Assembly: GCA_964569575.1 (NCBI GenBank)
Contig: CAZMTL010000003.1
Coordinates: 7,197-71,196 of the forward strand
Direction of reading: 5' to 3'
Length of the DNA: 64,000 nucleotides
From: an uncultured Gammaproteobacteria bacterium
GTDB taxonomy: Bacteria > Patescibacteriota > Patescibacteriia > UBA9934
This document shows, piece by piece, positions 3,440-46,454 of this stretch. Each line of letters opens with the position of its first letter. Position 1 is the stretch's first letter. A model generated the notes under the pieces. It was not told the origin of the DNA and searched no databases. It saw only the letters and a list, made by a program, of their open reading frames with translations. The translations under genes were made by a program, and so were the position numbers.

Positions 3440-3466
3440 AAAACGCCGAGTAATCAGCGTTTTTTG
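3440..3466. terminator. hairpin AACGC-loop-GCGTT followed by TTTTT, on both strands
   Basis: Seen in sequence between tRNA-Leu and the MazG-like gene. Confidence 0.5.
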
Positions 3467-3550
3467 GTGGGCCGGGCGGGATTCGAACCCGCAAGGTCTT
3501 TCGACCAGGAAATTTTAAGTCTCCCGTGTATACCCTTCCACCACCGGCCC
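3465..3550 (-). tRNA. tRNA-Leu (anticodon TAA), long variable arm, CCA encoded
   Basis: The reverse complement gives GGGCCGGTGGTGGAAGGGTATACACGGGAGACTTAAAATTTCC...GGTTCGAATCCCGCCCGGCCCACCA. The anticodon loop is CTTAAAA. Confidence 0.85.
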
Positions 3551-4018: not shown

Positions 4019-4109
4019 ACTAGCAGAATAGCAAATGGCAGAGGTACAAACAAGACACAACACCAACCTCTGCCTAATAATAAAATCAAAGATTCAGTAT
4101 AATGAAGAC

Positions 4110-12796: not shown

Positions 12797-12825
12797 AAAG
12801 AGCCACCCGGCTCTTTTTAGTTTTA
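12795..12825. terminator. bidirectional terminator AGAGCC-ACCC-GGCTCT + TTTTT
   Basis: Located between convergent genes. Confidence 0.6.
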
Positions 12826-12838
12826 AACCCCTCCATTC

Positions 12839-13753: not shown

Positions 13754-13804
13754 ACACGAAGAATTTAATATCAAACTCTTCCACTGTACCACATCCTCAT
13801 CGCG

Positions 13805-14635: not shown

Positions 14636-14657
14636 ACATCGAGTATACTATACCCGT
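14636..14657. promoter_or_regulatory. 22-bp divergent spacer with overlapping palindromic -10 boxes (TATACT on both strands) 6 and 8 nt from the two ATGs
   Basis: The spacer is acatcgagTATACTATAcccgt, and no Shine-Dalgarno is present on either side. Leaderless initiation is inferred. Confidence 0.5.
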
Positions 14658-15383: not shown

Positions 15384-16732
15384 TCGACCCACGCCGAATC
15401 CGCTCGCACAACACACATGAATACAAAAATGGTCCAGTCATCTACTGGATGGACCGCGACATGCGCGCCTCGGACAACTGGGCGCTTCTTCACGCAGCCG
15501 AGCTCGCAAAAAAACACAACGCCCCTCTCGCCGTCGTCTACAATTTAGTCACGGATTTTTTAGGCGGCGGCGCAAGACAACTCGACTTCAAACTCCGCGC
15601 ACTCGAATTGCTGGAAGAAATGTTTCAAAAGAAACACATCTCGTTCACCGTTCTTGTAACAGACGATTCAACAAAAGACCTTCAGGATTTTTTCAAGAAA
15701 ACAAAAGCTGGCTGCATCGTAACAGACTTCTCTCCACTAAAAATCCAACGCAAATGGAAAGCTGAGCTCGCAAAAACGCTCACCGTTCCCTTCCGCGAAG
15801 TCGACACACACAACATCGTGCCTGCTTGGGAAGCATCGAACAAAAAAGAATTCGGAGCCTACACCATCCGACCAAAAATCCACCGCCAACTTAGCGATTT
15901 TCTTGTTGAATTTCCAAAACTCACAAAAACCGAATCGATTTCCCCGCCAACAAAAAACAATTGGACCGAATGGAAAAAATTAATTGGCACTCACCCAACG
16001 CCCCTCACCCTTCCCGCCGGCGAAACAGCCGCAAAAAAAGCGCTTCAGCACTTTTTCAAAAACCGCCTACGAGGCTACGCCGAAAAACGAAACGACCCAA
16101 CGCTCGACGGCCAATCAAACCTGTCACCCTATCTCCACTACGGCCACATCAGCACTCAACGCATCGCGCTCGAACTCAAAAAAGAACACTCGCCACTCGA
16201 AGACAAAGAAGCATTTTTCGAAGAACTTGTCGTCCGAAAAGAACTGGCCGATAATTTTTGCTACTACGAACCCAACTACGATTCCACAAAAGGATTCCCG
16301 ACCTGGGCAAAGCAAACCCTTCTCGACCACGCAAACGACGAACGCGCATTCCTCTACACCAAAAAAGAATTCGAACAGGCAAAAACACACGATCAGCTCT
16401 GGAATGCGGCTCAAATGGAAATGGTGCTAACCGGAAAAATGCACGGCTACATGCGCATGTACTGGGCAAAGAAAATTCTCGAATGGACAAAATCACCAGA
16501 CGAAGCGATGAAAATCGCCATCTACCTCAACGACACCTACGAACTAGACGGCCGCGATCCAAACGGGTACACCGGAATTTCGTGGTCCATCGGCGGCACC
16601 CACGACCGAGCCTGGGGCACCCGTCCAATCTTCGGCAAAATCCGCTACATGAACGACAAAGGCGCAAAGCGGAAATTTGATGTTGAAGCGTACGTAAATA
16701 AATGGATGGGAACGGGCGGATTAGGAATATAA
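15380..16732 (+). CDS. class II CPD (deoxyribodipyrimidine) photolyase
   Basis: The N terminus is GPVIYWMDRDMRASDNWAL. The C-terminal class II signature is WSIGGTHDRAWGTRPIFGKIRYMNDKGAKRKFDVEAYV. Confidence 0.8.
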   Translation: MIDPRRIRSHNTHEYKNGPVIYWMDRDMRASDNWALLHAAELAKKHNAPLAVVYNLVTDFLGGGARQLDFKLRALELLEEMFQKKHISFTVLVTDDSTKDLQDFFKKTKAGCIVTDFSPLKIQRKWKAELAKTLTVPFREVDTHNIVPAWEASNKKEFGAYTIRPKIHRQLSDFLVEFPKLTKTESISPPTKNNWTEWKKLIGTHPTPLTLPAGETAAKKALQHFFKNRLRGYAEKRNDPTLDGQSNLSPYLHYGHISTQRIALELKKEHSPLEDKEAFFEELVVRKELADNFCYYEPNYDSTKGFPTWAKQTLLDHANDERAFLYTKKEFEQAKTHDQLWNAAQMEMVLTGKMHGYMRMYWAKKILEWTKSPDEAMKIAIYLNDTYELDGRDPNGYTGISWSIGGTHDRAWGTRPIFGKIRYMNDKGAKRKFDVEAYVNKWMGTGGLGI

Positions 16733-16785
16733 ACACGAAACCTCCCTTCCGTCCTTCGCTAAAGCTTCAGAGGACCCCCCCGTAG

Positions 16786-16915
16786 CCTTGGCGAAGGTGG
16801 GTAGTCCTCATTGTGGATCTAAGAAGGAGGGGAAACGCGTTTTGATTTTCGCCGAAAGACCCCTCCTCACCTCCCCTTGGTAAGGGGAGGAAACGCTTCG
16901 AGCTCATGCTCTCCC
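16786..16915. repeat. GC-rich palindromic repeat element, copy A (core tgtggatctaagaaggaggggaaacgcgttttgattttcgccgaaag plus hairpin ctccccttggtaaggggag)
   Basis: Its reverse complement is about 85% identical to the element at 63880-63929. Confidence 0.6.
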
Positions 16916-17267
16916 CTACGAAGAGAGACGAAGTCGAACGCCAGCGGAGCTCAACAAGCTGTGACAAAGAAAACGTGTAACTAAATCACTGTAACAAAAT
17001 CAGCGAAGGTCGAGCATTTTTCTCGTGTCTGCGGAGAGGGCTTGACCCTCGGAGACAGACATTGCAAAGAAAAATGCGATCGGTCACTTTCCAAAATTTA
17101 AAAATAAATGTTCGTGCCGCCGAGCCAGGAAAGGCTCTTTCTTTTGCCTACTTCTCTTTGAGCCAGCAAAGAAAAGTAGGTCGGGGTTCGGGGGTGAAAC
17201 TCCCGATCGTTGTGACAAAGTCGAAGCGACGCAGTCGCCTCAGACTCGCGCGCGATCGATCAGCGCG

Positions 17268-17342
17268 TAACCACCCCTCACCCCTCCTTGCGGATCTGAG
17301 AAGAAAGGGAAGCGCGTTATGATTTTCGCTCGAAACAAAAAA
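17268..17342. repeat. GC-rich palindromic repeat element, copy B
   Basis: tgcggatctgagaagaaagggaagcgcgttatgattttcgctcgaaac is about 80% identical to copy A. Confidence 0.6.
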
Positions 17343-17486
17343 GCGATGGATCCCAGCCTGCCCGGCCTTTAGTGCCGGGGATCAGGTCCGGGATGACAAA
17401 TATTTAGAACAATCAAAAAAACGACGCACGCGCTCCCGAAAGAACACGGCGTCGTCAGAAACAGGATCCAAAAATCCACCCTCACC

Positions 17487-19001
17487 CTAAACCTCATTCA
17501 ACGGCCCCGCCGTCCCATCCCCCACCATCCTTTTATAAACCAACTCCGCACTAATCAAACACGTCGGCATCCCGATTCCCGGATTTGTACTGGCTCCCAC
17601 ATAGTACAAATTCGGAATTTTTTTACTCACCGTATCTGGTCGAAAAATAGCCGTCTGAAAAAACGTATGCGCTAACCCGAGAGCCGTCCCTTTAAACGAA
17701 TTGTATCGCTCTTCAAAATCCCGTCCCGAAAAAATCCGTTTATAACAAATCCGCTCCCGCAAATTTGCAATCCCCATATCGCGCTCCATTCCCTCCAACA
17801 CCTTTTCTGCATACGCTTCAAGCAACGCATCATCTTCTTCCATCCCCGGCGCAATCGGCACCAGCACAAATAAATTCTCCTTCCCTGCAGGCGCCACAGA
17901 ATCATCCGTTACACTTGGCGCGCACACGTAATACGAAGGATCATCCGGCCATGTTGGTTGATCAAAAATCTGACCAAAATTTTTCTTCCAATCTTTCGAA
18001 AACACTAAATTATGATGAACCACTTCGGGAATCTTCCCTTCTACTCCCAAGTACAAAATAAACGCTGAAGGCGAAAGCACACGCTTTTCCCAATACGCAT
18101 CCGTAAACGAACGATGCGACGCGTCGAGCAGCTTCGTTTCAGTAAAATGAATATCGGCATTCGACACAACTTCATCCGCAAAATGTTCTTCTCCATTTTC
18201 GAGTCGAACACCAACAGCCCGACCATCCTTCACCAAAATCGTCTCCACCGCCGCCGAAGTCCGAATCTGAACCCCATGCTTTTGCGCAATCTTCACAAGT
18301 GCCTCGATAATCGTATAAATCCCACCCATCGGGTAATACACACCCATATTGAAATCGATGTGACTCATAATGTTATACAAAGCCGGCGTGTTATAAGGCG
18401 AGCTTCCCAAAAACACGAGAGGGTACTGCACAATCTTCTGCACTTCGTCGGTTGAAAAAAACTTCGACACATACCGCTGCATACTAGAAAAAACCGACAA
18501 CTTCGGACCCTGTGTCATCACCTCCCAAGTAAGAAAATCAAAAATGTTGCGATAATTTTTATACATAAACCGCTGCGTCGCAATCGCATATTGCTTTTCG
18601 GCCCGCGCCAAATAATCACGCATGCGATCGGCACTTCCAGGCTCCAACTTCTCGAGCGTCGCTGCATCACGGCTCATGTCTGAAAAAATCTCTACCTCTT
18701 TGCCGGTATCTTTAAAAAAGATTTTATAAGAAGGCTCCAATCGATGCAGCTGCAAATGATCTTCCACGCGCTCACCCATCAACCGAAAAAACTGCTCAAA
18801 AATATCGGGCATCAAATACCACGAAGGTCCCATATCAAATCGAAATCCTTCCGCCTCAAACACACTTGCTCGACCGCCAGGCGCTTCGTTCTTCTCAAAC
18901 ATCTGGACTTTGGCTCCAGCTTTACCAAGCAAACAAGCAGCCCCTAGTCCACCAAACCCCGAACCAATTACGATTACGTTCTTTCCTTCAAGCTTTGCCA
19001 T
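17487..19001 (-). CDS. crtI: phytoene desaturase CrtI
   Basis: N-terminal FAD fold (KNVIVIGSGFGGLGAACLL) consistent with the CrtI family. The start at the internal ATG overlaps the crtB 3' end by 28 nt. Confidence 0.8.
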   Translation of the reverse strand: MAKLEGKNVIVIGSGFGGLGAACLLGKAGAKVQMFEKNEAPGGRASVFEAEGFRFDMGPSWYLMPDIFEQFFRLMGERVEDHLQLHRLEPSYKIFFKDTGKEVEIFSDMSRDAATLEKLEPGSADRMRDYLARAEKQYAIATQRFMYKNYRNIFDFLTWEVMTQGPKLSVFSSMQRYVSKFFSTDEVQKIVQYPLVFLGSSPYNTPALYNIMSHIDFNMGVYYPMGGIYTIIEALVKIAQKHGVQIRTSAAVETILVKDGRAVGVRLENGEEHFADEVVSNADIHFTETKLLDASHRSFTDAYWEKRVLSPSAFILYLGVEGKIPEVVHHNLVFSKDWKKNFGQIFDQPTWPDDPSYYVCAPSVTDDSVAPAGKENLFVLVPIAPGMEEDDALLEAYAEKVLEGMERDMGIANLRERICYKRIFSGRDFEERYNSFKGTALGLAHTFFQTAIFRPDTVSKKIPNLYYVGASTNPGIGMPTCLISAELVYKRMVGDGTAGPLNEV

Positions 19002-19843
19002 AAAAGCGGTGCAATAAATAAACATTTTTCAAAAAAACTAGTACGTGCGCGACCAAGAAACGGGTTACAATCCTGCGCCTCTAACTTCTCCAAAATCGCT
19101 TCGTACAACCTAGACGCCACGCGCACAGAAAACCGACCACCTCGATTGAGCATCGGAATCCCCAGGTCCGCCTCGCGATACAGTGCCCGAGCACGAGCGA
19201 TTTCAAACTGCATCAACTGCTTAAACGCGTCATCAAAACGTCGTTCAACAATCTGCTCACGCGTCACTCCGAAACGCTTCAAATCTTCTTCCGGCAAATA
19301 AACGCGCCCGCGTTCAATCATGTCCTCGTCCACATCTCGCAAAAAATTCGTCAGCTGCATCGCGTATCCAAGCGCTTCAGCATACCCAAGCGCACGCGCG
19401 TCCGAATACCCAATTACATACGTCATCATCAACCCAACAACAGCCGCGGAACCATACATATAGCCTTTCAAATCTTCGTACGTGGCATAAGAATCTACAA
19501 ACACATCCTGCTCCATTGCATCCAAAAATGCTTCGCTATATTCAAACGGAATTCCATATCGCGAAAACACCTCCGCCGTCGCGCGCAAAACAGGGTGATC
19601 ACTCTCGCCCGTCGCATATGCACTTCGCCACTTCTCTCGCCACGCACTCAACTCCGCTCGAACATCTTCCTGCGTACGTTCACCTGCAAAATCAACAACG
19701 TCGTCTGGCACCCGAAAAAACGCATATAACACAAACGTCGCCTCGCGCAATTCACGCGAAAAAAACTTCGTCGCAAAATAATAACTCTTCCCATGCTTAC
19801 GATGAATCGCCTCGCAATACGCCACGTCAGTCGCAAGCAACAT
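18974..19843 (-). CDS. crtB: phytoene synthase CrtB (squalene/phytoene synthase family)
   Basis: YCEAIHRKHGKSYYFATKFF...FFRVPDDVVD and a second Asp-rich motif. Confidence 0.8.
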   Translation of the reverse strand: MLLATDVAYCEAIHRKHGKSYYFATKFFSRELREATFVLYAFFRVPDDVVDFAGERTQEDVRAELSAWREKWRSAYATGESDHPVLRATAEVFSRYGIPFEYSEAFLDAMEQDVFVDSYATYEDLKGYMYGSAAVVGLMMTYVIGYSDARALGYAEALGYAMQLTNFLRDVDEDMIERGRVYLPEEDLKRFGVTREQIVERRFDDAFKQLMQFEIARARALYREADLGIPMLNRGGRFSVRVASRLYEAILEKLEAQDCNPFLGRARTSFFEKCLFIAPLLWQSLKERT

Positions 19844-19844
19844 A

Positions 19845-20888
19845 TTACGAAAGTCGTTTTACAATCTTGCCAAGCAAATCCGAAAACTGACCGCGCAACT
19901 CATCCTTCACAGCACCACTGTCCAAAACAGATTTCGCCGACTCGAAATGACCATCCATAATCTGCCGTACGTTCTGCACAACGTCATTCTTTTCAAAAAA
20001 ATCCCGTAACTGCCCTCGCTCTTCTTCCCGAAAATCTCGTCCAAAAAATCCTTCAAAAAACTCCTTATCTTCCACACTTCCTTCCGACCGAATCTTCATC
20101 GACAAATACGTATGCTGACCATCTCGCACATCCGAAAACAATCGCTTTCCGGTCTTTTCCTCGTCCCCAATCACATCAAGTAAATCATCCTGAATCTGAA
20201 ACCCAATCCCAAGCTCACGCCCGAACGCATCAGCAAAAGCAAAGTAATCACCATTCAGCCCCGCAAGCGCAAACCCAATCCGCAACGGTCGCACAAACGT
20301 ATAACTCGCCGTTTTAAAATACATCTTCGCTAAAATATCTGCTTGCTCGGCCTGCGCGCTAGTCATCAAATCAACATCCAACATCTGACCAACGACCACT
20401 TCATCCATCATCATCCGCACCTCACGCCAAGCAGCTGCATTCGCACCAATCGAAGAATACAACGCATCCAAGGCCCATCCGAACACTAAATCACCTACTA
20501 ACACGGCCTGACTATTAGAAAGATGTCCCACGTCACCTCGCGCCTCGCGCGCAAGCATCGTCCGCAAAAAATACGCATGCACTGTCTCCTCCCCACGCCG
20601 CAACGCCGCACGATCAATCACGTCGTCATGAATCAAGCAAAACGCATGAAACAATTCAATCCCAACCAACGCCGAAACAATCTCTTCCCGCGACTTCCCG
20701 CCCGCCGTATACGCAAGTGCAATAATATAAGGACGAATCCGCTTCCCCGTCGCACTAATCCGCTGCACCCGCCTTAAAGCATCGAGCAATTCTTGATTGT
20801 CGGTCATTCCCGCCACCTCCAAAATTCGATCCGAAATCACCTCCGAAAACCGTGGATCAAACCACTCCCGAAATTCCTGTAGAGACAT
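19845..20888 (-). CDS. crtE: polyprenyl synthetase (GGPP synthase, CrtE/IdsA-like)
   Basis: FARM motif LIHDDVID and SARM motif GFQIQDDLLD. The start was taken at the internal ATG. Confidence 0.75.
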   Translation of the reverse strand: MSLQEFREWFDPRFSEVISDRILEVAGMTDNQELLDALRRVQRISATGKRIRPYIIALAYTAGGKSREEIVSALVGIELFHAFCLIHDDVIDRAALRRGEETVHAYFLRTMLAREARGDVGHLSNSQAVLVGDLVFGWALDALYSSIGANAAAWREVRMMMDEVVVGQMLDVDLMTSAQAEQADILAKMYFKTASYTFVRPLRIGFALAGLNGDYFAFADAFGRELGIGFQIQDDLLDVIGDEEKTGKRLFSDVRDGQHTYLSMKIRSEGSVEDKEFFEGFFGRDFREEERGQLRDFFEKNDVVQNVRQIMDGHFESAKSVLDSGAVKDELRGQFSDLLGKIVKRLS

Positions 20889-20988
20889 AGTGCACCAAAT
20901 ATAACAAAAAGAGGCAGATTTGGGAAAATGAAACAAATAAAAAACACCCCTTACTGCTCCTAATATTCAAACCAGAAACAAAAAGGGG

Positions 20989-25249: not shown

Positions 25250-26640
25250 AGCACTTCAAAAGAATAACCTCTACCTTGCTTGCCCTAAGCGTCTTTGTGT
25301 TCGTCGGGCAAGGGTGTATTGGTGGCGGAGGATCAACCGCAGGACAAACCATTCCACAGGTCACACTGGAATACTGGCGCGTGTTCGATGGTGAAGAAAG
25401 TTTCCGCACAACCATCAACGCGTACCGGGCTCTACATCCAAACGTACGTATCAACTACCGACGACTGCGATTCGATGAATACGAGCAAGAATTACTCCAA
25501 GCCTTCGCCGAAGGACGCGGTCCGGACATCCTTTCCATTCACAACACGTGGATGAAAGAATATCAACCACTGCTTCAGCCAATGCCAGCGTCCGTAACCA
25601 TCGTGCAGCAAGAACAGCGTGGTAGCCTGCGAAAAGAAGTGGTGAACGTCGCCGTAGAAAAACCAACTATTTCACAAAAAAATCTACGCGAACAATACGT
25701 AGACACGGTTCCCCTCGACGTTATTCTGACCGATCCAGATGCTCAACAAGGCAGCGCCGACAAAATCTACGGTCTTCCTCTTTCGGTCGACACCCTAGCC
25801 CTGTTCTACAATCGAGATCTACTAAACAGCGCCGGCATCGCAACTCCTGCGACAGACTGGCAAACATTGATGGATCATGTAGAAACGCTCACAACGCTAA
25901 ATACGTCAGGTGATGTCCTACAAGCAGGAATCCCTCTTGGAACAGCAGAGAACGTGGAAAGATCAGCCGATATCCTCTCACTGCTGATGATGCAAACCGG
26001 CACAAATATGACCGACGAACGAGGCCGAATCGCCTTCCACACAGCTCCAGCCGGATTCGCAAACGATCTTCCAGCCGTAAACGCGCTTCAGTTCTACACC
26101 GATTTCGCACGCCCAGTACAAAGCGTCTACACATGGAACGACGACATGCCAAATTCATTCGAAGCATTCACAAACGGAACAGCGGCCTACTTCCTTGGAT
26201 ACAGCTACCACACGCCACTCATCCAAACAGCAGCGCCACGACTGAACTTCGGTGTTTCAACCGTGCCACAAATTGCTGGTTCGCAAGAAGTAAACTACGC
26301 AAACTACTGGATCGAAACAGTCTCAAAACAAACCGAATTCAGTGACTGGGCATGGGATTTTCTCCAGTTCGCTTCTCAGCCAGCGAATGTGACAAGCTAC
26401 TTGAACGCAACAAAAAAACCAACCGCTCTTCGACTTCTACGCGAAGAACAGTTGGACGATGAGTTGATCGGTCCATTTGCAGAACAACTTCTGACAGCAA
26501 AAACATGGTACCGCGGTCGCGATGTCGGAGCAGCAGAAACAGCCCTACGACAATTAATCAACGACATTCTAAACGGCACCTACCAAAGTCCCGAGGAAGC
26601 CCTCACCGTTGCCGCAAACAAAGTAAGTCAAACCCTATAA
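25246..26640 (+). CDS. ABC-transporter substrate-binding (extracellular solute-binding family 1-like) lipoprotein, orphan
   Basis: The signal/lipobox-like N terminus is followed by a solute-binding-protein-sized domain. ATGA overlap with galU. No permease or ATPase gene is adjacent. Confidence 0.55.
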   Translation: MKHFKRITSTLLALSVFVFVGQGCIGGGGSTAGQTIPQVTLEYWRVFDGEESFRTTINAYRALHPNVRINYRRLRFDEYEQELLQAFAEGRGPDILSIHNTWMKEYQPLLQPMPASVTIVQQEQRGSLRKEVVNVAVEKPTISQKNLREQYVDTVPLDVILTDPDAQQGSADKIYGLPLSVDTLALFYNRDLLNSAGIATPATDWQTLMDHVETLTTLNTSGDVLQAGIPLGTAENVERSADILSLLMMQTGTNMTDERGRIAFHTAPAGFANDLPAVNALQFYTDFARPVQSVYTWNDDMPNSFEAFTNGTAAYFLGYSYHTPLIQTAAPRLNFGVSTVPQIAGSQEVNYANYWIETVSKQTEFSDWAWDFLQFASQPANVTSYLNATKKPTALRLLREEQLDDELIGPFAEQLLTAKTWYRGRDVGAAETALRQLINDILNGTYQSPEEALTVAANKVSQTL

Positions 26641-26665
26641 AAGCAGGCGAAAGCCTGTTTTTATT
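26641..26665 (+). terminator. terminator CAGGC-GAAA-GCCTG + TTTTT
   Basis: Seen in sequence. Confidence 0.55.
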
Positions 26666-26777
26666 ATTCCCGCCAAAAAACAAGAGGGGCCCCGAGCAGA
26701 ACACGCAGTCGCGCATTCAACTCAGAGCCCCGAAGCCCCGATCCCCACCACACGTAAGCGGTGAGGATATCAGACTT

Positions 26778-28835
26778 CTACTTCACCACGTCACAGGCGC
26801 AGCGTCCGACCTTCTTCAAGGCATGGACACAGAGCCGATCGTAATCCGCCTGCGTGATCACGCAAGCGGAAGCCGTGGCAGTTGGTACTGCTACGACCAC
26901 CATCTGACGCGTTTGCCACACCGCCAGAATGCCGGTTGTGGCTACGGTGCCGAGGATGACCAGGGTCATCGTACGGCTGACAGCACGGCTGGCCGCGTAA
27001 GCCATGGTTCCGTAGACGTCCTTGTCGTTGACCTTCGGTCCGAGCATCGTCAGGAGCTCGGCACAGAGACCAAGAACAACGCCCGAAGTGGTGTAGAGCC
27101 ACCCCGCGAACCGAACGACCGAGCTGAAGCCGTGCATGGCCGGAAAGCCCGCCAGGTTGATCAGCAGGATCACCAACGACACGACGTTCGCGCGAACCGC
27201 GATACCGACAAGTCGAGGATGAGGAGGCTTGGCATGCGGGTTGCGCTCACGCTCCTTCTCGAGAAGCGAGAACACCCGACGCCGATCCTCTGCGCTCTGC
27301 TGAGCCCACCGTTGCAAGGGCTCGAGGTCAGAGACGCCCACCTTGACGAGGAGGTCCTTCATTGCGGTTGCGGGGAACGTGAGCCAGTTGGGGTTCGGGA
27401 TGAACCCTCCCAGCATGCTGATGACGTCGTCCTGCAGTCGAGCGATCAGCCGACCAAGGAAGACGAGTACGGCGCCCGAAGCCGAAACGGTCAACAGGAG
27501 CGCGTGCAGCCACGCGGGTCCCGAAAAACCGATGATGGCCGGAACCGCCATGGTGCCGACGAAGGTAAACGCGTGCAGGAAGTACCCGCCCACGATCGCC
27601 AACCACGGCACCACCATGAACACCAGGAAGGTGCCCAAGGCCAGCACGGATCCGCCACCCATCATCACCGCCAGGACTCGAATGAGCCAGGGCAGGTCAC
27701 GGAAGCGGCCTTCACGCAGGTTGGTGAACTGCCGCACGAACCAGGCCCGGATCAGCGGAACCGGCACGAACCGATCGATCTGGTCCATGCCCCAGGCATA
27801 CCAGCTCGGCGTATGCATCGTGGAGATGTCCACGACGAACTTGCCAAGCGCGGCATGGATCTGCGCAGGAGTCGACGCGTCGTTGAGCTCCGGCAGAATG
27901 CTGATGAGCGCCTGCGGATTGTTCCTCGCAAGCGTGATCAGCCCCTCGAAAGCGCTGTAGGCAAAGCCGTCGTAGGACGGCGGCAGCTGCCCCAGAATCC
28001 ACCCCTCACGTCCGGGGGTGAAGTTCGCAATACGACCACCAGGCATGACCTGATTCAGTCGTTCCTGCGCCTGGTCGGTGTCGCGGTACATGTACCACAC
28101 CAAGTTCCAGTACAGGATGTAGAACCCTGGCAAGAGGTGTTCCGGACACTGCTGCAGGAAGGTCTTGGCGACCCCTGCGTCGGTCGGCGGCTCGCCTTCC
28201 GGCTCCTCGTCCGGACTCACCGTCTCGACGACGATCGTAACCACATCGTTAGGGAAGCAGTCACGACAGAAGGCCTTGTGGAGATTCTCGAGAACCTCGA
28301 GACCACTCAGCTCAATCGAACGGTGATCGCCGGAAACCCCACACAGCACGCCCTTTCGATGAATGTTGTGCTGCCGATGTGGCCCGGTCTGGAACTTCTT
28401 CTCTTCCAGATCGCGCTTTTCGCTCGAGTTGTTCCACGAGTCCATAATGCGCGCCTTCAGGTCATCCTCACTCAAATCGCCATTCGAAAGGATGTTCTTT
28501 GCCATGGAGGCAAAGTTACCAATGAACATGCCGATCGGGTATCGAATAACCAGCGGAACACCCTTCATGCTCTTCACGGTCTCGCCCATCAACTGACCCA
28601 GGAAGATTCGTACGGGCACAGGAATGGCCACGAAGGCGCGGTAGACAAACTCCCAGAAGGGAGCCTTACCGAGCGCCTCCTTCAGGCTATCGCGATGCTC
28701 ATGGAAGAACTTCCCCATGAACTTACGCAGAAGCTCTTGAGTGCCTTGATCGATGGTCTCACCGACCACCGACTCCAGCCCGGGCACGGCGTCGATTCCC
28801 TTCTTGAATTCACGCACCAGCAGGTCGATATTCAT
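26778..28835 (-). CDS. uncharacterised 685-aa polytopic membrane protein (about 390-aa N-terminal soluble domain plus 6 or more TM helices) in the high-GC island
   Basis: The minus-strand ORF has clear TM helices. A GGAG Shine-Dalgarno sits 6 nt upstream of the internal ATG (MNIDLL), and GC is about 62%. Confidence 0.5.
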   Translation of the reverse strand: MNIDLLVREFKKGIDAVPGLESVVGETIDQGTQELLRKFMGKFFHEHRDSLKEALGKAPFWEFVYRAFVAIPVPVRIFLGQLMGETVKSMKGVPLVIRYPIGMFIGNFASMAKNILSNGDLSEDDLKARIMDSWNNSSEKRDLEEKKFQTGPHRQHNIHRKGVLCGVSGDHRSIELSGLEVLENLHKAFCRDCFPNDVVTIVVETVSPDEEPEGEPPTDAGVAKTFLQQCPEHLLPGFYILYWNLVWYMYRDTDQAQERLNQVMPGGRIANFTPGREGWILGQLPPSYDGFAYSAFEGLITLARNNPQALISILPELNDASTPAQIHAALGKFVVDISTMHTPSWYAWGMDQIDRFVPVPLIRAWFVRQFTNLREGRFRDLPWLIRVLAVMMGGGSVLALGTFLVFMVVPWLAIVGGYFLHAFTFVGTMAVPAIIGFSGPAWLHALLLTVSASGAVLVFLGRLIARLQDDVISMLGGFIPNPNWLTFPATAMKDLLVKVGVSDLEPLQRWAQQSAEDRRRVFSLLEKERERNPHAKPPHPRLVGIAVRANVVSLVILLINLAGFPAMHGFSSVVRFAGWLYTTSGVVLGLCAELLTMLGPKVNDKDVYGTMAYAASRAVSRTMTLVILGTVATTGILAVWQTRQMVVVAVPTATASACVITQADYDRLCVHALKKVGRCACDVVK

Positions 28836-28940
28836 GTTGCACTCCACGCAGCTTAGCTGCATTTATGTTTCGGGATATTGAAGTAGAATGTGAAAGAATA
28901 TCCGCAATGCGGAACGCTAAAAAATAACAGATTTTAAGGC

Positions 28941-29011
28941 TTTTGTCAATGTTAAGTCATCAAAACAAACAAAGACTAATGAATGAAATACACGTGCCAA
29001 CATTGACAAAA
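28941..29011. promoter_or_regulatory. 13-bp inverted repeat TTTTGTCAATGTT ... AACATTGACAAAA in the AT-rich divergent promoter region of the island
   Basis: The two perfect arms are 45 bp apart. This is a candidate operator. Confidence 0.4.
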
Positions 29012-29077
29012 AGCATTTTTTCTGATAAATAAAGAGGTTCCGTAATTCACGGAAGCAAAACCACCAAGGAGTACATC

Positions 29078-29365
29078 ATGTTCCTGCTATTCCTCGGCAT
29101 CACCAGCGCAAACCCGCCCTCGCCCTTCGCGAAGGCGGAGGAGAACCTGGTGCTCACCGAAGCACAACGCAGCGAGATGGTATCGCTGCGTAGTCAGCGA
29201 GACGAGCTGGCAGACGAGCTGCTGAAGGCCCTGAAGGAAGTCGACCGGCTGAAGAGCCTGGTACAGACCACCGAAGCGGAGCGCGACAAGTTCAAAGGCA
29301 CGGCGAGCAAGTACGAGCAGTGCCAAGCGGCGCTGACCGACCTGCTCGAGGAGTGTGCCCAGTGA
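29078..29365 (+). CDS. small coiled-coil protein with hydrophobic N terminus (95 aa), island
   Basis: An AAGGAG Shine-Dalgarno sits 7 nt upstream. The sequence is heptad-like (LADELLKALKEVDRLKSLV). Confidence 0.4.
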   Translation: MFLLFLGITSANPPSPFAKAEENLVLTEAQRSEMVSLRSQRDELADELLKALKEVDRLKSLVQTTEAERDKFKGTASKYEQCQAALTDLLEECAQ

Positions 29366-29883
29366 ACGTCCTGTTCCTGCTGCTCGCGAACGCGTCGGCA
29401 AGCGACACGATCGACGAGCTGTGCAACAAGCATCCGGGTCTGCAGACCTGCGCAGCACGCGCAACTGCAGAGCACCCGTACTACATCTGCAAGGTGGGTC
29501 TTTCGCTGGAAGCGTTGAATTGGTCCGACGCCATCAGCGTCACCAACAACCCAAACGGCGAAATTGCGCTCGCCGTTGACGGAAACGAAGTGAAAATCGT
29601 AGACGTCAACAACAGGGCGCAGCTGGCCCAGACCGTCGACGGAACCTGGGTCTACATGCTGAAGCCCAGGCAGTCCTGCACCATGATGGTGCCCGCCCAG
29701 GACCAGTGGCAGGTCACCGCAACGAAGGTGGGCAGCAACAACAACGGCGGCACCATCGAAACGGAAGTGGTGGCCTGGCGCAGCGGTCGAGTACAGCTGT
29801 ACGCGACCTACACACAACCTCTCGGCGGCAGGGGCTACGGAAAGCACTGGGTGCTGACCCCAAGCCTGTTCAAGAAACCGTGA
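29362..29883 (+). CDS. secreted beta-rich hypothetical protein (signal peptide), island
   Basis: A GTG start overlaps the upstream stop (GTGA). The signal peptide is LFLLLANASA. Confidence 0.4.
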   Translation: MNVLFLLLANASASDTIDELCNKHPGLQTCAARATAEHPYYICKVGLSLEALNWSDAISVTNNPNGEIALAVDGNEVKIVDVNNRAQLAQTVDGTWVYMLKPRQSCTMMVPAQDQWQVTATKVGSNNNGGTIETEVVAWRSGRVQLYATYTQPLGGRGYGKHWVLTPSLFKKP

Positions 29884-29899
29884 ACGGCTCGCCGAAATC

Positions 29900-29947
29900 A
29901 AAAGCCCCCGACCACACGCTGTGCGGTCGGGGGCAATCTGTTTTTAT
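29900..29947. terminator. strong GC-rich terminator GCCCCCGACC-loop-GGTCGGGGGC + TTTTT
   Basis: The 10-bp GC stem sits at the island's right border and downstream of a pilin-like gene. Confidence 0.7.
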
Positions 29948-29950
29948 TAA

Positions 29951-30340
29951 CTAAGTAGTGGTAGCGTTTCCTAATTCGGTAATCACGAATTCCGAAATCG
30001 CATAAGCACTCAAGATGATCACTAAACCAATTACAGCTTGTACCAACAATTTCTTTGCTTTTTCAACGTTATCAGTATTACCAGCCGCCGTCATCCAAAG
30101 TCCACCAGCGTAAAGCACGAGAACTAAAAAGACGATTCCTAAAAAGCCCAAAACTGCCTGAATCAAACTTCCCAAAGTCTCCTCTAACGTTCTTCCACCA
30201 GAACCAAACGCCTCATCTCCGACATCGCTAAGTCCAGTTGTTAAATCAATCTGCGCTTGCGCAGGAGTACTAGCGAACAAACCTGCCAACAAAACAAATC
30301 CCACCGTCGGAACCGCTAAAAACTTTAATGCCAAATTCAT
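29951..30340 (-). CDS. VirB2/TrbC-topology pilin-like protein (T4SS pilin-like), paralog 1
   Basis: A signal peptide ending AQA is followed by a variable region. The C-terminal conserved two-helix module is LGFLGIVFLVLVLYAGGLWMTAAGNTDNVEKAKKLLVQAVIGLVIILSAYAI. Confidence 0.55.
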   Translation of the reverse strand: MNLALKFLAVPTVGFVLLAGLFASTPAQAQIDLTTGLSDVGDEAFGSGGRTLEETLGSLIQAVLGFLGIVFLVLVLYAGGLWMTAAGNTDNVEKAKKLLVQAVIGLVIILSAYAISEFVITELGNATTT

Positions 30341-30444
30341 AAATAAATTAAGTAATTACTCAATTAGTACTTCTAGTATAGCACGTTCAGCAACAACCTA
30401 AAGGATATCTGGGGATAGTCTTGAAACCGCGATCAAAACAGAGA

Positions 30445-30858
30445 CTATTCCACAGCAGGAATACCCTGCGTACCTTCTTGAACGCTATCCGTGGTAATGC
30501 CGGAAAGCTCATTCATTACCGTAGTCGTAATGACGTATGCTGAAATAATAAGCACTAAGCCTATCACAGCCTGAACAATTAAACGCTTTGCCTTCGCAAC
30601 CAATTCTACATTTCCTCCAGCTGTCATCCACAAAAAACCTGCGTACAGCATCAGTACAAGAAAGAGAATACCCACGAATCCAAGAGCAGGTGCAATAATG
30701 CGCTCCCCTAAAAAGTCAGGCAAACTCGTTTCTGCGTCAGCTCCATACACAGCAGTGCCCGTAGCTGTTAATCCACTATTTTCAGGATCAAACTGCGCAA
30801 ATGCAAAAATTGGCATCAACAGCAAAGAAATGGCGAGGAGGGATAGCAGTTTTCGCAT
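30445..30858 (-). CDS. VirB2/TrbC-topology pilin-like protein, paralog 2
   Basis: The module is LGFVGILFLVLMLYAGFLWMTAGGNVELVAKAKRLIVQAVIGLVLIISAYVI. Confidence 0.55.
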   Translation of the reverse strand: MRKLLSLLAISLLLMPIFAFAQFDPENSGLTATGTAVYGADAETSLPDFLGERIIAPALGFVGILFLVLMLYAGFLWMTAGGNVELVAKAKRLIVQAVIGLVLIISAYVITTTVMNELSGITTDSVQEGTQGIPAVE

Positions 30859-30902
30859 AACGGAACGTTCGAAGAAAGTTCGAACGAACCGTCATGTGAC
30901 AA

Positions 30903-31316
30903 CTAGTTAGTTGCTCCAATGATGGCTCCAACCACGAATTGCGCGATTGCCCATGCAGAGAAAATGATGGCAAGACCGATCACTCCAGAAATAAGGAGTT
31001 TCTTGGCTTCCTGCACCTTTTCGTCGTTTCCTCCCGCGGTCATCCATTTGAATCCCGCGAAAAGCACGATGATCACCGCAATGATTCCGAGGAATCCAAG
31101 CACAGCATTGATCAACCCACCAATCGTTTCCTGAAGATCAGTGTCTCCAAGACCCGTGTTGGCACGGAAGTCGTCGTCCAAGATTGTACTTGGATCATTT
31201 GCATCAAACTGAGCGTGCGCGATTTGAGTCATTCCAAGGAATGAAAGCGCGAGCGCTAGTCCGACACCAATGCTTGCTACATAGCGTAGAAGTGTGTGCG
31301 TCATAAAATATGACAT
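30903..31316 (-). CDS. VirB2/TrbC-topology pilin-like protein, paralog 3
   Basis: The module is LGFLGIIAVIIVLFAGFKWMTAGGNDEKVQEAKKLLISGVIGLAIIFSAWAI. Confidence 0.55.
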   Translation of the reverse strand: MSYFMTHTLLRYVASIGVGLALALSFLGMTQIAHAQFDANDPSTILDDDFRANTGLGDTDLQETIGGLINAVLGFLGIIAVIIVLFAGFKWMTAGGNDEKVQEAKKLLISGVIGLAIIFSAWAIAQFVVGAIIGATN

Positions 31317-31340
31317 TGTTAAGGTTTATTAGACATGTTA

Positions 31341-31691
31341 TTAGCCCGTAACACTACCGGTCGCAAGACCTTGGAAGATAGCCGTTACAAGCACATAAGA
31401 AGAAGCGATGAGTACCAGGCCCATAACGGCCCAAAGTAACACATTCTTCCCCTTTTCCACCGCCGTGGCGTTCCCGGCTGAAGTCAGCCACAGAAACCCA
31501 CCATACACAAACATCAGCAACGCTACCGAACCTACAATCGAAAGGGCAGCCTGAATCACTCGCGCAATAATCAAGCGAGGATCAGTCACACCATCTCCAA
31601 GCGGATTCACAAGCGTCACGACGTCCTGAGCATGCACAACGATTGGAAGAAAAAGCAGACTTATGAAAATAAGATAAGGAAGCTTTTTCAT
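31341..31691 (-). CDS. VirB2/TrbC-topology pilin-like protein, paralog 4
   Basis: The module is LSIVGSVALLMFVYGGFLWLTSAGNATAVEKGKNVLLWAVMGLVLIASSYVL. Confidence 0.5.
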   Translation of the reverse strand: MKKLPYLIFISLLFLPIVVHAQDVVTLVNPLGDGVTDPRLIIARVIQAALSIVGSVALLMFVYGGFLWLTSAGNATAVEKGKNVLLWAVMGLVLIASSYVLVTAIFQGLATGSVTG

Positions 31692-31743
31692 ACAAGTATT
31701 ATAACATTAATACAAACACTCATGAACACGATTGTGTATATGT

Positions 31744-32232
31744 TTACTGCGTGTCGATAACATTCGTCGCGCCACTTACATCTTCAACCGTCTGTCCGTC
31801 GCTTGGGAGCTGCCCCGTACGAATCAAACTGATCACAATCGTAATCAACGAATACGACGTAAAAATAATCACAAGCCCAATCAACGCTCCAACTAAAATC
31901 TGCTTCCCTTGCTCAACACGTGCCGCATTCCCACCAGAAATCAACCAAAGAAATCCGCCATACACAAACATCAACAAAGCAAGCGAACCCGAAATACTCA
32001 AAATCAACGTAATAATATTCACCATCACCTGCAAAATATCTGAAATTTCGCAGTCGCCACTATCACGACAAGGACATTCCGCGGCACTCGAAGTACAGAT
32101 GCCGGCAAAAATAACTCCCTGCTGACGAATCTGTTCGTATGTTACCGGGCCACCTTGAGCAAACGCAGCCGTTGGAACAAAAAAAGAAACAAAGAGTGCA
32201 AACGACAAAACAAGTTTCGAAAACATATACAA
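31744..32232 (-). CDS. VirB2/TrbC-topology pilin-like protein, paralog 5 (Cys-rich variable region)
   Basis: The module is LSISGSLALLMFVYGGFLWLISGGNAARVEQGKQILVGALIGLVIIFTSYSL. It has 6 Cys in the exposed region. Confidence 0.5.
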   Translation of the reverse strand: MYMFSKLVLSFALFVSFFVPTAAFAQGGPVTYEQIRQQGVIFAGICTSSAAECPCRDSGDCEISDILQVMVNIITLILSISGSLALLMFVYGGFLWLISGGNAARVEQGKQILVGALIGLVIIFTSYSLITIVISLIRTGQLPSDGQTVEDVSGATNVIDTQ

Positions 32233-32272
32233 AAGTATAACACAACCGGTTCTCGGTTGTGTGAATGACTAT

Positions 32273-38616: not shown

Positions 38617-39048
38617 ATGCGTATGAAAATTTCTGAACAATATCCGGCATACGAGAAAAAAACGCTGATCATCGTAACAAACAATGAAGTGGCCAGATTA
38701 TTCCTTGCCGTTGATCGCGAAATAGAAGAAATACTAAACGTTTTCGCCACAGATTCGGGGAAGAAACAAAAAAACATCGAACTCGAAAACGAAAAAACAG
38801 AAGAAGATCAAAAAAACGATCGCAAAAAACTACACAAACACATCTTGAAAGCATTAAAAAAACACGAAGCAGCTTACGAATCACTCACCCTCTGCGCACC
38901 CGAAGCATTAAAAAATGAACTTTTCGAAGCGCTTCCAGAAAAATACAAACAACTCAGTAACGAAGTGGTACCAAAAAATCTGGCATCACTCCCAATCGAT
39001 CAAATCGTCCGAATTCTCCAAGAGAAAAAAACAAACACCCGCCCGTAG
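38617..39048 (+). CDS. hypothetical protein (143 aa)
   Basis: The ORF has coding-like composition, but no motif is recognised. Confidence 0.35.
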   Translation: MRMKISEQYPAYEKKTLIIVTNNEVARLFLAVDREIEEILNVFATDSGKKQKNIELENEKTEEDQKNDRKKLHKHILKALKKHEAAYESLTLCAPEALKNELFEALPEKYKQLSNEVVPKNLASLPIDQIVRILQEKKTNTRP

Positions 39049-43649: not shown

Positions 43650-44792
43650 TTACTGACGAATAGGCATTACAATGTGACGATATCGTTCGTCGGCCGACTC
43701 GAATGCGGTAATTGTTAACGGTGAATTCTTCTCGATCCAAGAACAAAGCACCTTCTCGGCCCCAATCGCATTTACCGCGTCCATCAAATACCGAAAATTC
43801 ACCAAAATCGAATTCTCCTCCCCAGTAATCATCGCTTCAACTTCAACCTGGTTTTCCCCACGCTGACTATCGGTCGCATACAGCGTCAATTTCTGCTCAG
43901 CAACATTAGTTTTCATTTCCACGTCAAACAATCCATTCTTCGAAAACAAACTCACCGCCTTCACCGCCTTCAAAAACGACTGCTTGTCCGCCGCAACCGT
44001 TGTCTTCGCCTCTGTCGGAATAATGCGCTGGTACTCCGGATACGGTCCGTCGATAGTTCGCGAAGTAATCTCCACGCCCGCATAACGAAAGGCTGCCTGA
44101 TTTTCGAGTAACTCCACTTCAACCGCATCTCCCGCATCCACATCATCTTTAAAAACACCAAACACACGATTCAATTCAAGTAATGTGCGCTGAGGAATAA
44201 TCACCTGACGCATTTCATCACTTCCACCCGAAACACCAATAATCGCTTCTCCTAATCGATAACTATCCGTCGCGGCTAACACCAAGGTTCCTGCCCCTGC
44301 TGATTCGCCATGGAAGGACAGCAGTACCCCCGCCAACTCGGGACGTGACTCATTTGTCGCGGCAGCAAACAAAACCTGCGACAGCGCCCGCGAGAGGGCT
44401 TTAGAGGGCAGTGAATACTTCACGCCCCCCTCCACTGGAGGGATTGGAGGAAATTCCGATGTATCAATTCCTTTAATCTTCGTCTTCGCCTTCCCGCAAG
44501 CAACCGAAAGCGCATCATCGAGTAAATCGATTTGCACATTCTCATTTGGAAGCAAGTTCACGTAGTCAAAAAACAATTTTCCCGGAACAGTATATTCCCC
44601 TTGCTGCTCAACACGTCCCCGGACATGACAAGTAATAGCAATCTCTAGATTTGTCGAAATCAATTTCAATCCCCCAGAATCTGCTTTCAAATAAACATTA
44701 CTCAATATAGGCAAATGAACATTCTTTGTTCCAATATGACTTGTAATAGCAAGTCCTTGGTGCAAGTTTTCTTTGGTACAGGTAAGTTTCAC
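43650..44792 (-). CDS. dnaN: DNA polymerase III beta sliding clamp DnaN
   Basis: Three-domain beta clamp (MKLTCTKENLHQGL...). It lies immediately downstream of dnaA. Confidence 0.9.
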   Translation of the reverse strand: MKLTCTKENLHQGLAITSHIGTKNVHLPILSNVYLKADSGGLKLISTNLEIAITCHVRGRVEQQGEYTVPGKLFFDYVNLLPNENVQIDLLDDALSVACGKAKTKIKGIDTSEFPPIPPVEGGVKYSLPSKALSRALSQVLFAAATNESRPELAGVLLSFHGESAGAGTLVLAATDSYRLGEAIIGVSGGSDEMRQVIIPQRTLLELNRVFGVFKDDVDAGDAVEVELLENQAAFRYAGVEITSRTIDGPYPEYQRIIPTEAKTTVAADKQSFLKAVKAVSLFSKNGLFDVEMKTNVAEQKLTLYATDSQRGENQVEVEAMITGEENSILVNFRYLMDAVNAIGAEKVLCSWIEKNSPLTITAFESADERYRHIVMPIRQ

Positions 44793-45026
44793 AAGTTCAG
44801 TGTTATTAATAAATTAAGTACTAAATAGATACAGTAGTAATAGTAAGGGGTGTGTACAGCTCGGATAAGTCGATTTTTTGGCGAATGTAGGGCTCAATTT
44901 TTTCCACATTCTGTGCATGGACCAGGGTATGAACTGGTGGATGAAAGGTGGACAACTTTTGAAGCTCGGAAGCAAGGAGAAGTTGACCACAGGGTTTTCA
45001 ACATATTCGAGCGACTTATCGACAAG
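44793..45026. promoter_or_regulatory. dnaA-dnaN intergenic region: AT-rich tract plus degenerate DnaA boxes (oriC half, candidate)
   Basis: AT-rich 44797-44847, and box-like ggtggacaa / ttgaccaca. Confidence 0.4.
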
Positions 45027-46454
45027 TTACCCACTGTAGAGCTTTTGCTTGATAAGTTCGACATCTCGCTGCAATTGATCATCATTCTTGAGCAATTTCG
45101 AGATTTTGGTGTACGCATGCATGGCAGTCGTGTGATCCCGCCCTCCAAGCTCTCCTCCGATCGACGGATATGAGATCTTCATCTCTTCGCGCAGAAGGAA
45201 CATAATGATCTGCCGAGGGAACGCTAATCGTTTTTCGCGACTCTTCCCAAGAACGTCATCTGTCGAAATATCGAAGTACTCAGCAACTGTTGTAATGATG
45301 AACCGAGGAGAGACGGTCTTTTTGATCGCGTTCGTTTCCAAAGTAGCAATAAGCGGCTTAATGCTTTCGAGCGACGGAATCAAGTTCTTAAACTGGTGAT
45401 ACGCCATGATTTTATTAAGCGCACCCTCCAACTCTCGAACATTCGAATTGATATTCGAAGCAATATAGTGAAGAATATCGTGAGGAAGCTTAAGCGGTTT
45501 GTTCTGAGCTTTGATTTCCAAAATCGCTACACGCGTTTCTAGGTCAGGTGCCCCAACGTCAACCAACATCCCCCATTCAAGTCGAGACAAAAGACGTTTT
45601 TCGAGAGAAGCAATCGCCTTCGGTGGACGGTCCGAACAAATAACGATCTGTTTATTGTCCTGGTGAAGCGCGTTGAATGTATGGAAGAATTCCTCCTGCG
45701 TTCCCTCTTTTCCGGTAATAAATTGAATATCATCGATTAAAAGAAGATCCGCTTTTCGATACTTATCTTTAAATTCCTTCGCTTTCCCAGAACGAACTGC
45801 TTGAATAAAGTCATTCGTAAAGTGCTCGCAGGTCACATAGACAATGTTTGCGTTCGCATTTCGCTTCAAAGTTTCGTTTCCGATCGCGTGCAGCAAGTGC
45901 GTCTTTCCAAGCCCAACACCGCCGTAGATAAAGACAGGGTTATACGTTCCGCCTGGTTGAGCAGCGACCGCCTGAGCAGCAGCATGCGCGAGTTCATTCT
46001 GTTTACCAACGACGTATGAATGAAAGGTGTAAGAAGGATTGATGCTTACGCGCCCACCTCGAGCAGGCGGTTCCTCGTAAGTGCTAAAACCAAAGTCTTG
46101 CGAAGGATGTTGTGAATGCGCTGGTTGAGCAAACTCTTCCCTTTTTGGTGGTTCGATTGTTTCAAAAACAATAGGCTTAGGCTCCGTGGCACGCGTCTCC
46201 ACACGGTAGCTAAGCCGTTTAATATTCTTTTCTGTAATGTTTTGAAGCGAAACAAGAATGTCCTTGTGGTACTTTTTTTCAAGCCACGCTTTAGTAAATG
46301 TATTTGGAACGCCGATAATAATCTCTTCGGGTTGAAAATCTGAAATGAAAGTACTCCGAAACCAAGTGGTAAAGTGCGCTTTTGAAAGCTTGAGTTCAAG
46401 CTCGCCAAGAGCGGCCTGCCAAAGTTCGTGAGTATTCATAAGCGATTGAAGCAA
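45027..46454 (-). CDS. dnaA: chromosomal replication initiator DnaA
   Basis: AAA+ motif GGVGLGKTHLLHAIGN and C-terminal DNA-binding domain. Confidence 0.9.
   Translation of the reverse strand: MLQSLMNTHELWQAALGELELKLSKAHFTTWFRSTFISDFQPEEIIIGVPNTFTKAWLEKKYHKDILVSLQNITEKNIKRLSYRVETRATEPKPIVFETIEPPKREEFAQPAHSQHPSQDFGFSTYEEPPARGGRVSINPSYTFHSYVVGKQNELAHAAAQAVAAQPGGTYNPVFIYGGVGLGKTHLLHAIGNETLKRNANANIVYVTCEHFTNDFIQAVRSGKAKEFKDKYRKADLLLIDDIQFITGKEGTQEEFFHTFNALHQDNKQIVICSDRPPKAIASLEKRLLSRLEWGMLVDVGAPDLETRVAILEIKAQNKPLKLPHDILHYIASNINSNVRELEGALNKIMAYHQFKNLIPSLESIKPLIATLETNAIKKTVSPRFIITTVAEYFDISTDDVLGKSREKRLAFPRQIIMFLLREEMKISYPSIGGELGGRDHTTAMHAYTKISKLLKNDDQLQRDVELIKQKLYSG

Follow-up and report, generated by a model that had tools for sequence, protein, structure and literature searches.

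A conserved array of five VirB2-like pilin genes beside a high-GC3 gene trio in a Patescibacterial chromosome

What would a bacterium do with five different pilin genes placed side by side? The question is raised by positions 29951–32232 of a 64-kb stretch of DNA from contig CAZMTL010000003.1 (hereafter, the window), in which five adjacent and co-directional open reading frames (ORFs) on the minus strand make up a pilin array. The Patescibacteria, to which the window belongs, are a huge and mostly uncultured group whose members live attached to other microbes, and in the one species tested a type IV secretion system (T4SS) is essential together with a series of pilins. We consider it likely that the five genes are transcribed as one operon and encode Sec-exported VirB2-like pilins for a T4SS of the Patescibacteria type. 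A fixed set of paralogs with a Cys-rich first subunit points to a multi-subunit structure more than to a variation repertoire, and the operon is tied to a fast-evolving, codon-biased gene trio whose products are specific candidates for a role in host contact or in assembly.

Family, topology and layout of the five pilins

The ORFs and the alignment of their products agreed with the initial annotation of this DNA, which had described five consecutive minus-strand genes encoding proteins of 116–162 aa with a shared architecture, and all five ORFs were confirmed as real. Its assignment of the proteins to the VirB2/TrbC type of T4SS pilins was likewise borne out by searches with hidden Markov models (HMMs). 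All five pilins exceeded the curated gathering cut-off of PF18895 (T4SS_pilin; 26.6 bits), with E-values from 7e-7 to 1.6e-13 and scores of 32.7, 40.0, 51.0, 29.7 and 36.5 bits for paralogs 1 to 5, numbered in the order of transcription. The TrbC/VirB2 model PF04956 (cut-off 27.9) was exceeded by one of the five, and marginally (paralog 3, 28.2 bits), the other four giving 19.6, 10.4 and 18.0 bits and, in one case, no match. Paralogs 3 and 5 also passed the cut-off of 40 for NF045849 (“Mbov_0395 family pilin-like conjugal transfer protein”) with 50.8 and 42.6 bits, while the remaining three reached 29.4 and 20.1 bits or had no match; the NF045849 match covers the entire hairpin module described below. 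For paralog 3 we recovered 912 homologs, of which those with a named source come from Patescibacteria, Uhrbacteria or Magasanikbacteria, and the database homologs carry the same precomputed PF18895 domain. Type IV pilins (T4P, PilA-like) were considered and rejected, as none of the five sequences contains a class III motif of the G-F-T-L-I-E type, the transmembrane (TM) helices are two and C-terminal, and no T4P family of Pfam was matched. Judged from their sequences, the five proteins are VirB2-like pilins of the Patescibacteria-type T4SS pilin family PF18895.

In the five-paralog alignment, where pairwise identity to the first sequence is 27–48%, every member begins with a hydrophobic signal peptide, which is followed by a divergent stretch and then by a conserved C-terminal module of two helices. 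Signal peptides had been predicted to end near AQA; the signal peptides themselves were recovered, but AQA occurs in only one of them, the shared pattern being A-x-A (A/V-x-A over the whole set) followed by an invariant Q. The divergent exposed region, counted from the cleavage site to the conserved module, measures 13–37 aa and not the 30–70 aa first given. The proposed two-helix hairpin was supported both by a hydrophobicity scan, which in each pilin found two TM segments in addition to one resembling a signal peptide, and by an AlphaFold model of paralog 3 built from 51 sequences. In this model, a helix at residues 3–34 corresponding to the signal peptide is followed by a low-confidence exposed region and by a hairpin of helices 61–92 and 98–136 with pLDDT values >90. 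The N-regions and C-tails are acidic or neutral, and the loop between the helices (W-M/L-T-A-G-G-N...K-x-K) carries a net charge of 0 to +2. As this charge distribution fits the positive-inside rule, we predict that, as in VirB2, the hairpin is N-out/C-out and its basic loop cytoplasmic.

The first gene of the array encodes paralog 1 (31744..32232, minus strand), with 162 aa if translated from a TTG codon. An ATG at 32226, giving 160 aa, is the more likely start, and the same gene is annotated with 160 aa in L001 (L numbers label loci of related genomes and P numbers homologous proteins). Its exposed region contains four Cys residues spaced C-x7-C-x-C-x6-C, and not the six that had been counted when this gene was listed as paralog 5; its C-terminal tail is 28 aa long. 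Paralog 2 (31341..31691, minus strand) is the shortest of the five, with 116 aa and an exposed N-region of 13 aa. Paralog 3 (30903..31316, minus strand) is the best conserved and has an acidic N-region; it comprises 137 aa, or 133 aa from an ATG at 31304, and the identical protein P0001 starts at that ATG four codons further downstream. Paralog 4 (30445..30858, minus strand; 137 aa) ends in an acidic C-terminal tail of 21 aa, and paralog 5 (29951..30340, minus strand; 129 aa) is the last gene.

Gaps between the pilin genes are 24–104 nt. After the last of them lies a strong intrinsic terminator hairpin (29904..29934) with a 14-bp stem containing 11 G-C pairs, a 3-nt loop and then a T-run on the minus strand, which separates the pilin genes from convergent genes for secreted proteins on the opposite strand. 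A second, terminator-like hairpin (32240..32262, minus strand; 9-bp stem), a consensus match only, follows the upstream PGI-like gene and stands just before the first pilin. As one hairpin precedes the first pilin and a strong terminator follows the last, the array appears to be a transcription unit of its own, and the five pilin genes probably form one operon.

Fixed array positions in related genomes

A scan of one genome per species yielded 80 related loci, whose records are titled Uhrbacteria, Magasanikbacteria, Falkowbacteria or Patescibacteria, and in many other cases “uncultured Gammaproteobacteria”, a placeholder. An HMM built from the pilin alignment found a match in all 80, nearly always in the form of a co-directional array. 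Cluster size ranges from 2 to 13 genes; 6 is the most frequent size (36 clusters) and 5 the next (12 clusters). The five-gene array of the window is typical for the clade, if slightly small.

When compared with two relatives that have six-gene arrays, the window paralogs best match positions 1, 2, 3, 4 and 6, position 5 being without a counterpart in the window; paralog 5 thus equals position 6 of the six-gene arrays. The same best matches were obtained for paralogs 1–5 in 23, 20, 17, 15 and 20 of 35 six-gene arrays, respectively. The position-5 paralog is also missing from L088, whose five genes are one-to-one orthologs of the window pilins with identities of 49–69%. Paralog 2 shares 54–60% identity with the position-2 proteins of L002, L005 and L088, paralog 3 shares 55–69% with its position-3 orthologs, and paralog 4 shares 52% with position 4 of L088.

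This positional correspondence extends to the exposed regions, which had initially been described as hypervariable. Mean identity of the N-regions is 42% between orthologs and 28% between paralogs, and for the hairpin module the corresponding values are 59% and 44%. Since ortholog identity in the N-regions exceeds paralog identity, the exposed regions are better described as paralog-specific and conserved. On these comparisons, the paralogs are ancient positional orthologs that keep fixed array positions across related genomes, and the suggestion that they are diversifying copies of a surface filament could not be upheld, the paralogs being old and their positions conserved across genomes; specialised subunits therefore fit the data better than continuing diversification.

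The first position of the array stands out in a similar way. Among arrays of five to six genes, the position-1 ORF is longer (median 178 aa) and has at least four Cys residues in 70% of cases, versus 2–22% at other positions. The Cys pattern of paralog 1, C...C-x-C...C, recurs among the position-1 orthologs. By length and Cys content, paralog 1 is a specialised subunit type, longer and Cys-rich.

A high-GC3 gene trio beside the array

The array had been noted to border a high-GC island, and this was confirmed: between 26.8 and 29.9 kb the GC content is 0.60–0.61, compared with a window mean of 0.47. The excess is limited to the third codon positions (GC3) of three genes, with normal values at the first and second positions (GC1 and GC2), and GC3 of the pilins and the housekeeping genes is 0.42–0.49. 

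The largest gene of the trio (26778..28862, minus strand; GC1/2/3 0.62/0.41/0.77) encodes a polytopic membrane protein of 694 aa with a soluble helical N-domain of about 390 aa that lacks a signal peptide, 6–7 TM helices and a C-terminal Cys pair. Its N-domain has the motif H...C...C-x-x-C-F. In relatives, the N-terminal helical domain, the 6–7 TM helices and the Cys pair are common to the members of the family, and the motif, a putative zinc-binding site, is found in most of them. Only four matches to the 694-aa protein were found among 1.84 billion representative proteins, and both of those that could be located (P0121 and P0122) are encoded between a pilin array and a PGI gene in the same synteny. 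A homolog also follows the array in L012 (E 2e-53), and a profile of the family joins the positional equivalents in L005, L014 and L034. As far as these homologs indicate, the family is very sparse, fast-evolving and found only beside these pilin arrays. Neither the 694-aa protein nor 8 relatives gave a consistent Pfam or NCBIfam match, even at E-values up to 1. We considered whether it could be VirB6 or TrbL, but it matched no VirB6, TrbL or PrgH profile, and an N-terminal domain of ~390 aa followed by TM helices is a non-canonical layout for VirB6. An AlphaFold model from five sequences (pLDDT 49.7) was too poor for fold comparison.

The other two genes lie on the plus strand and converge with the pilins. 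A secreted coiled-coil protein of 95 aa is encoded at 29078..29365 (GC3 0.82), with an AAGGAG Shine-Dalgarno sequence ahead of the start, and matches only coiled-coil-type profiles, weakly; it corresponds to the coiled-coil proteins L88_181 and L87_163 and to the C-terminus of L5_299. The GTG start of the following gene (29362..29883; GC3 0.78) overlaps the stop codon of the 95-aa gene (GTGA). It encodes a secreted protein of ~173 aa with the signal peptide MNVLFLLLANASA that has no Pfam or NCBIfam match and has positional equivalents in L005, L088 and the P0121 locus. The 694-aa gene is separated from these two genes by a divergent, AT-rich intergenic region (28863..29077; GC ~0.38) with sigma-70-like hexamers on both strands, which are consensus matches only.

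In relatives, the order is pilins, then one or two opposite-strand genes for secreted or coiled-coil proteins, and then a polytopic membrane protein of 600–760 aa on the pilin strand. The GC3 excess recurs in L002, L005, L012, L088, the P0121 locus and others, trio GC3 being 0.58–0.89 across the lineages examined versus 0.35–0.53 for neighbouring genes or the locus median. A high-GC3 outlier gene was found at most 3.5 kb from the array in 20 of 78 loci, always downstream, and only four upstream outliers were flagged for any array, 3.1–6.8 kb away. In the window, the block formed by trio and pilins (~26700–32270) has, with respect to the SBP and PGI genes on either side of it, the opposite orientation to that found in L005, L088 and the P0121 locus.

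Several other explanations of this segment were tried and set aside. A one-off foreign island does not account for the high GC, as several relatives show the same excess at the corresponding position. A plus-strand ORF of 783 aa (26505–28856) proved to be an antisense artefact, rich in R, H and Q and with GC1 above GC3, and the two small plus-strand ORFs are not a single frameshifted gene, their GTGA overlap being that of coupled genes. No inverted repeats were found at the borders of the inverted block, which argues against an invertible element. Gene calling in this region is itself inconsistent: for identical DNA (12750–14700), public annotations give one 632-aa gene in L005 and three antisense fragments in L006. 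In a word-seeded homolog search of a 5.8-billion-protein collection, the 694-aa protein was absent, without even a self-match, and its gene has therefore probably been mis-called in the source record.

At the cell surface, the trio is probably a functional partner of the pilins. It is possible, though we hold it only tentatively, that in Uhrbacteria/Magasanikbacteria-like Patescibacteria the array and the trio, with its membrane protein of 630–760 aa, make up a conserved surface module in which the trio would be an unrecognised, lineage-specific partner of the T4SS pilus for anchoring, assembly or host recognition. If so, the fast divergence of the trio would reflect host specificity, and its codon usage special regulation or recombination.

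Several other parts of the window deserve mention. A small protein encoded at 38617–39048 has sub-threshold matches to Host_attach (PF10116) and to baeRF family 12, and is conserved, with unchanged synteny, in L005 and at the P0121 locus. A carotenoid-type cluster at 13805–20936 encodes a UbiA prenyltransferase, Caroten_synth, a phytoene-desaturase-like amine oxidase, a phytoene/squalene synthase and a polyprenyl synthetase, and is adjoined by a DNA photolyase (15248–16732). Metabolic genes of this type are unusual for a reduced Patescibacterial genome; L088 also carries part of the cluster (the desaturase-like amine oxidase, the phytoene/squalene synthase and the polyprenyl synthetase) upstream of its array. 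Finally, an HNH endonuclease ORF (3551–4066) directly beside tRNA-Leu (3465–3550) may be the remnant of a mobile or homing element.

The secretion system, rival readings and known systems

The window covers a chromosomal stretch of housekeeping genes from an Uhrbacteria/Magasanikbacteria-like Patescibacterium. It contains genes for RuvB, a PBP1-type transglycosylase/transpeptidase, BipA, trigger factor, an H+-pyrophosphatase, PNPase, a ComM-like protein, S15 and NifU/cysteine desulfurase, as well as dnaN/dnaA (43650–46454), 11–13 kb from the pilin array. As far as ~42 kb the window shows a strongly negative GC skew, which then gives way to values near zero; this shift is consistent with a replication origin nearby and fits the published remark that T4SS genes of Patescibacteria are often near dnaA (Quinonero-Coronel et al, 2025; PMC12102498). 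Housekeeping synteny is conserved around the arrays, in the order NTP-transferase, SBP, pilins and then PGI, Pyr_redox and NifU.

The initial annotation had called the pilins orphans, given that no VirB4, VirD4 or VirB6 homolog lies in the window. This absence was confirmed, but the term does not suit a locus that is conserved in the clade, is routinely apart from the T4SS ATPase locus and is linked to the trio. Among the 80 relatives, ORFs of at least 500 aa with a Walker A motif were inspected, and the large ones near the arrays that could have been VirB4 or VirD4 proved to be SMC, ComM and ABC-F proteins. As none of these ORFs within 10 kb of the arrays was a VirB4 or VirD4, a pilin operon apart from the ATPase locus seems to be normal for the clade. 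A cell-wall hydrolase with LysM and Peptidase_M23 domains is encoded at 53606–54916, 21 kb from the array; both domains are listed among the extra domains of certain VirB1-like hydrolases of the Patescibacterial T4SS (2025 survey; PMC12102498).

How, then, might the five pilins act? By analogy with VirB2/TraA pilins and with the Saccharibacterial system, the subunits would, after cleavage of their signal peptides, sit in the membrane as N-out/C-out hairpins, from where a VirB4-powered T4SS encoded elsewhere on the chromosome could extract them and polymerise them into a pilus-like tube or conduit. Such a conduit would cross the cell wall and contact the host bacterium, and the conserved paralogs would be distinct structural subunits, a major one and specialised ones for the tip or for nucleation, and not interchangeable variants. 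This picture matches current thinking in the field, in which a pilus-like conduit is the working hypothesis (2025 review; PMC12857230). In Southlakia epibionticum, transposon sequencing (Tn-seq) found the T4SS cluster, including its predicted pilin series, to be essential for epibiotic growth (Wang et al, 2023; PMC10633639).

Several points weigh against this picture. No VirB4, VirD4, VirB6 or other T4SS family was detected in the 64-kb window when essentially all ORFs of at least 120 aa were compared with Pfam and NCBIfam, nor was any VirB4 or VirD4 found within 10 kb of the arrays in the 80 relatives among ORFs of at least 500 aa with a Walker A motif, so that a partner T4SS elsewhere in this genome is assumed. 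A search of PDB sequences with the five-pilin profile returned zero matches even at E-values up to 10, and in structure comparison the model of paralog 3 was indistinguishable from generic helical hairpins. Roles as minor pilins or in a heteropolymer are suggested by the conservation patterns alone, and no pilus has yet been visualised for any Patescibacterial T4SS (PMC12857230).

A different view of such arrays is that they are a repertoire for antigenic or host-range variation, made of interchangeable major pilins that are expressed alternately or selected according to host strain or phage evasion. This model exists for the VirB2 paralogs of Bartonella and Anaplasma, and host-range or antigenic variation was proposed as one reading of the Patescibacterial arrays by the authors who described them (PMC12102498). 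It would be in keeping with N-regions that diverge more between paralogs than the hairpin module does (28% versus 44% identity) and with an array size that varies from 2 to 13 across genomes. However, every paralog, N-region included, is kept at the same array position across species, near-identical recent duplicates are absent, and no invertible or recombination repeats were found flanking or within the array. In addition, the tight spacing and the single terminator suggest that all five genes are co-transcribed, and the pilin genes of S. epibionticum were all reported to be essential, which argues against redundancy (PMC10633639). We therefore regard a variation repertoire as unlikely.

Nor do we think it probable that the array and the high-GC3 module form a surface or membrane structure independent of a VirB4-containing T4SS, such as a Sec-dependent scaffold, a pore or an adhesion complex, and we would give this reading little credence. 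In its favour, the arrays of the clade lie without VirB4 or VirD4 within 10 kb, and in tight synteny with genes for two secreted proteins and one polytopic membrane protein. Yet in other classes of Patescibacteria members of the same pilin family are encoded within the T4SS cluster and are, like it, essential, 1,948 assemblies that carry these pilins also have VirB4 (PMC12102498), and T4SS genes are commonly split over several loci. That the genes encode small lytic or toxic membrane peptides, whether of the holin type, of the bacteriocin type or of another kind, is highly improbable. The proteins are small, have two TM helices and show weak, sub-threshold matches to unrelated families of small membrane proteins (FixQ and DUF6112), but all five pass the curated T4SS_pilin threshold and have cleavable signal peptides, which holins lack. 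Genes for lysis, immunity or ABC exporters are not adjacent, the neighbours being SBP, PGI and the high-GC3 module, and the chromosomal locus is conserved in all 80 related species sampled. The initial annotation had itself named a lack of HMM matches, a lack of the hairpin and a holin or bacteriocin context as findings that would speak against pilins; we looked for all three and encountered none.

An operon of VirB2-like pilins for a T4SS thus places the locus among features that have been described before. In a search of 3,035 Patescibacteria genomes with PF18895, PF04956 and other profiles, VirB2-like pilins were found in 1,948 VirB4-containing assemblies, only 1,135 of which had them next to virB4, and 441 arrays of 2–11 pilin genes were reported from 383 assemblies, with a mean identity of 25% and a maximum of 54% (Quinonero-Coronel et al, 2025; PMC12102498). 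An array was defined there as at least two pilin genes in tandem or one non-pilin gene apart, with low identity between paralogs, and the five adjacent, co-directional genes of low identity in the window agree with this definition. Since tandem arrays of divergent VirB2-like genes have been published for Patescibacteria, the kind of feature is already known and the locus is a further example. New here are the finding that co-directional arrays are the rule in 80 relatives, the positional orthology, the Cys-rich first gene and the link to the trio; in the publications consulted we found no mention of a high-GC3 three-gene module.

Other known arrays are the SEML1_0006–0019 region of S. epibionticum ML1 and the “Sec-secreted array” of Nanosynbacter lyticus TM7x. 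With the Patescibacterial arrays the locus shares the PF18895 family, tandem co-directional paralogs, Sec signal peptides and a location near dnaA/dnaN, and its five genes compare with 2–11 in the published set and 6 in S. epibionticum, its paralog identity of 27–48% with the published mean of 25% and maximum of 54%. In contrast to the published arrays, those of the window and of its Uhrbacteria/Magasanikbacteria-like relatives are neither in nor beside a virB4 cluster, lie in housekeeping synteny and are linked to the high-GC3 three-gene module.

The pilins resemble VirB2, TrbC and TraA of diderm bacteria (T-pilus, RP4 and F pili) in having a signal peptide, a hairpin with a basic loop, an N-out/C-out orientation and a mature length of ~70–110 aa. 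They differ from them in that four of the five fall below the PF04956 threshold, the host is a monoderm, and several conserved paralogs are present instead of a single major pilin; unlike diderm T4SS loci, the window has no VirB5, relaxase or neighbouring T4SS genes. The closest curated profile from outside the candidate phyla radiation (CPR) is that of the Mbov_0395/MMCAP2_0565 pilin-like proteins (NF045849) from integrative and conjugative elements (ICEs) of Mycoplasma, whose host is also wall-less/monoderm. The Mycoplasma protein is encoded by a single gene in a mobile ICE, whereas here a chromosomal array holds multiple paralogs, three of which are below the NF045849 cut-off. The T4SS of Mycoplasma ICEs would belong to the MPF-FATA class. 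Patescibacterial VirB4 also groups with this monoderm class, and for this reason the pilin may have come with an MPF-FATA system and not have been co-opted from diderm T4SSs, a question of origin that was left open in the 2025 paper (PMC12102498). Finally, several tandem and divergent virB2 copies are also found in the effector-translocating T4SSs of Bartonella and Anaplasma; there they are read as variation repertoires of animal pathogens, whereas the positional orthology seen here argues for fixed, specialised roles.

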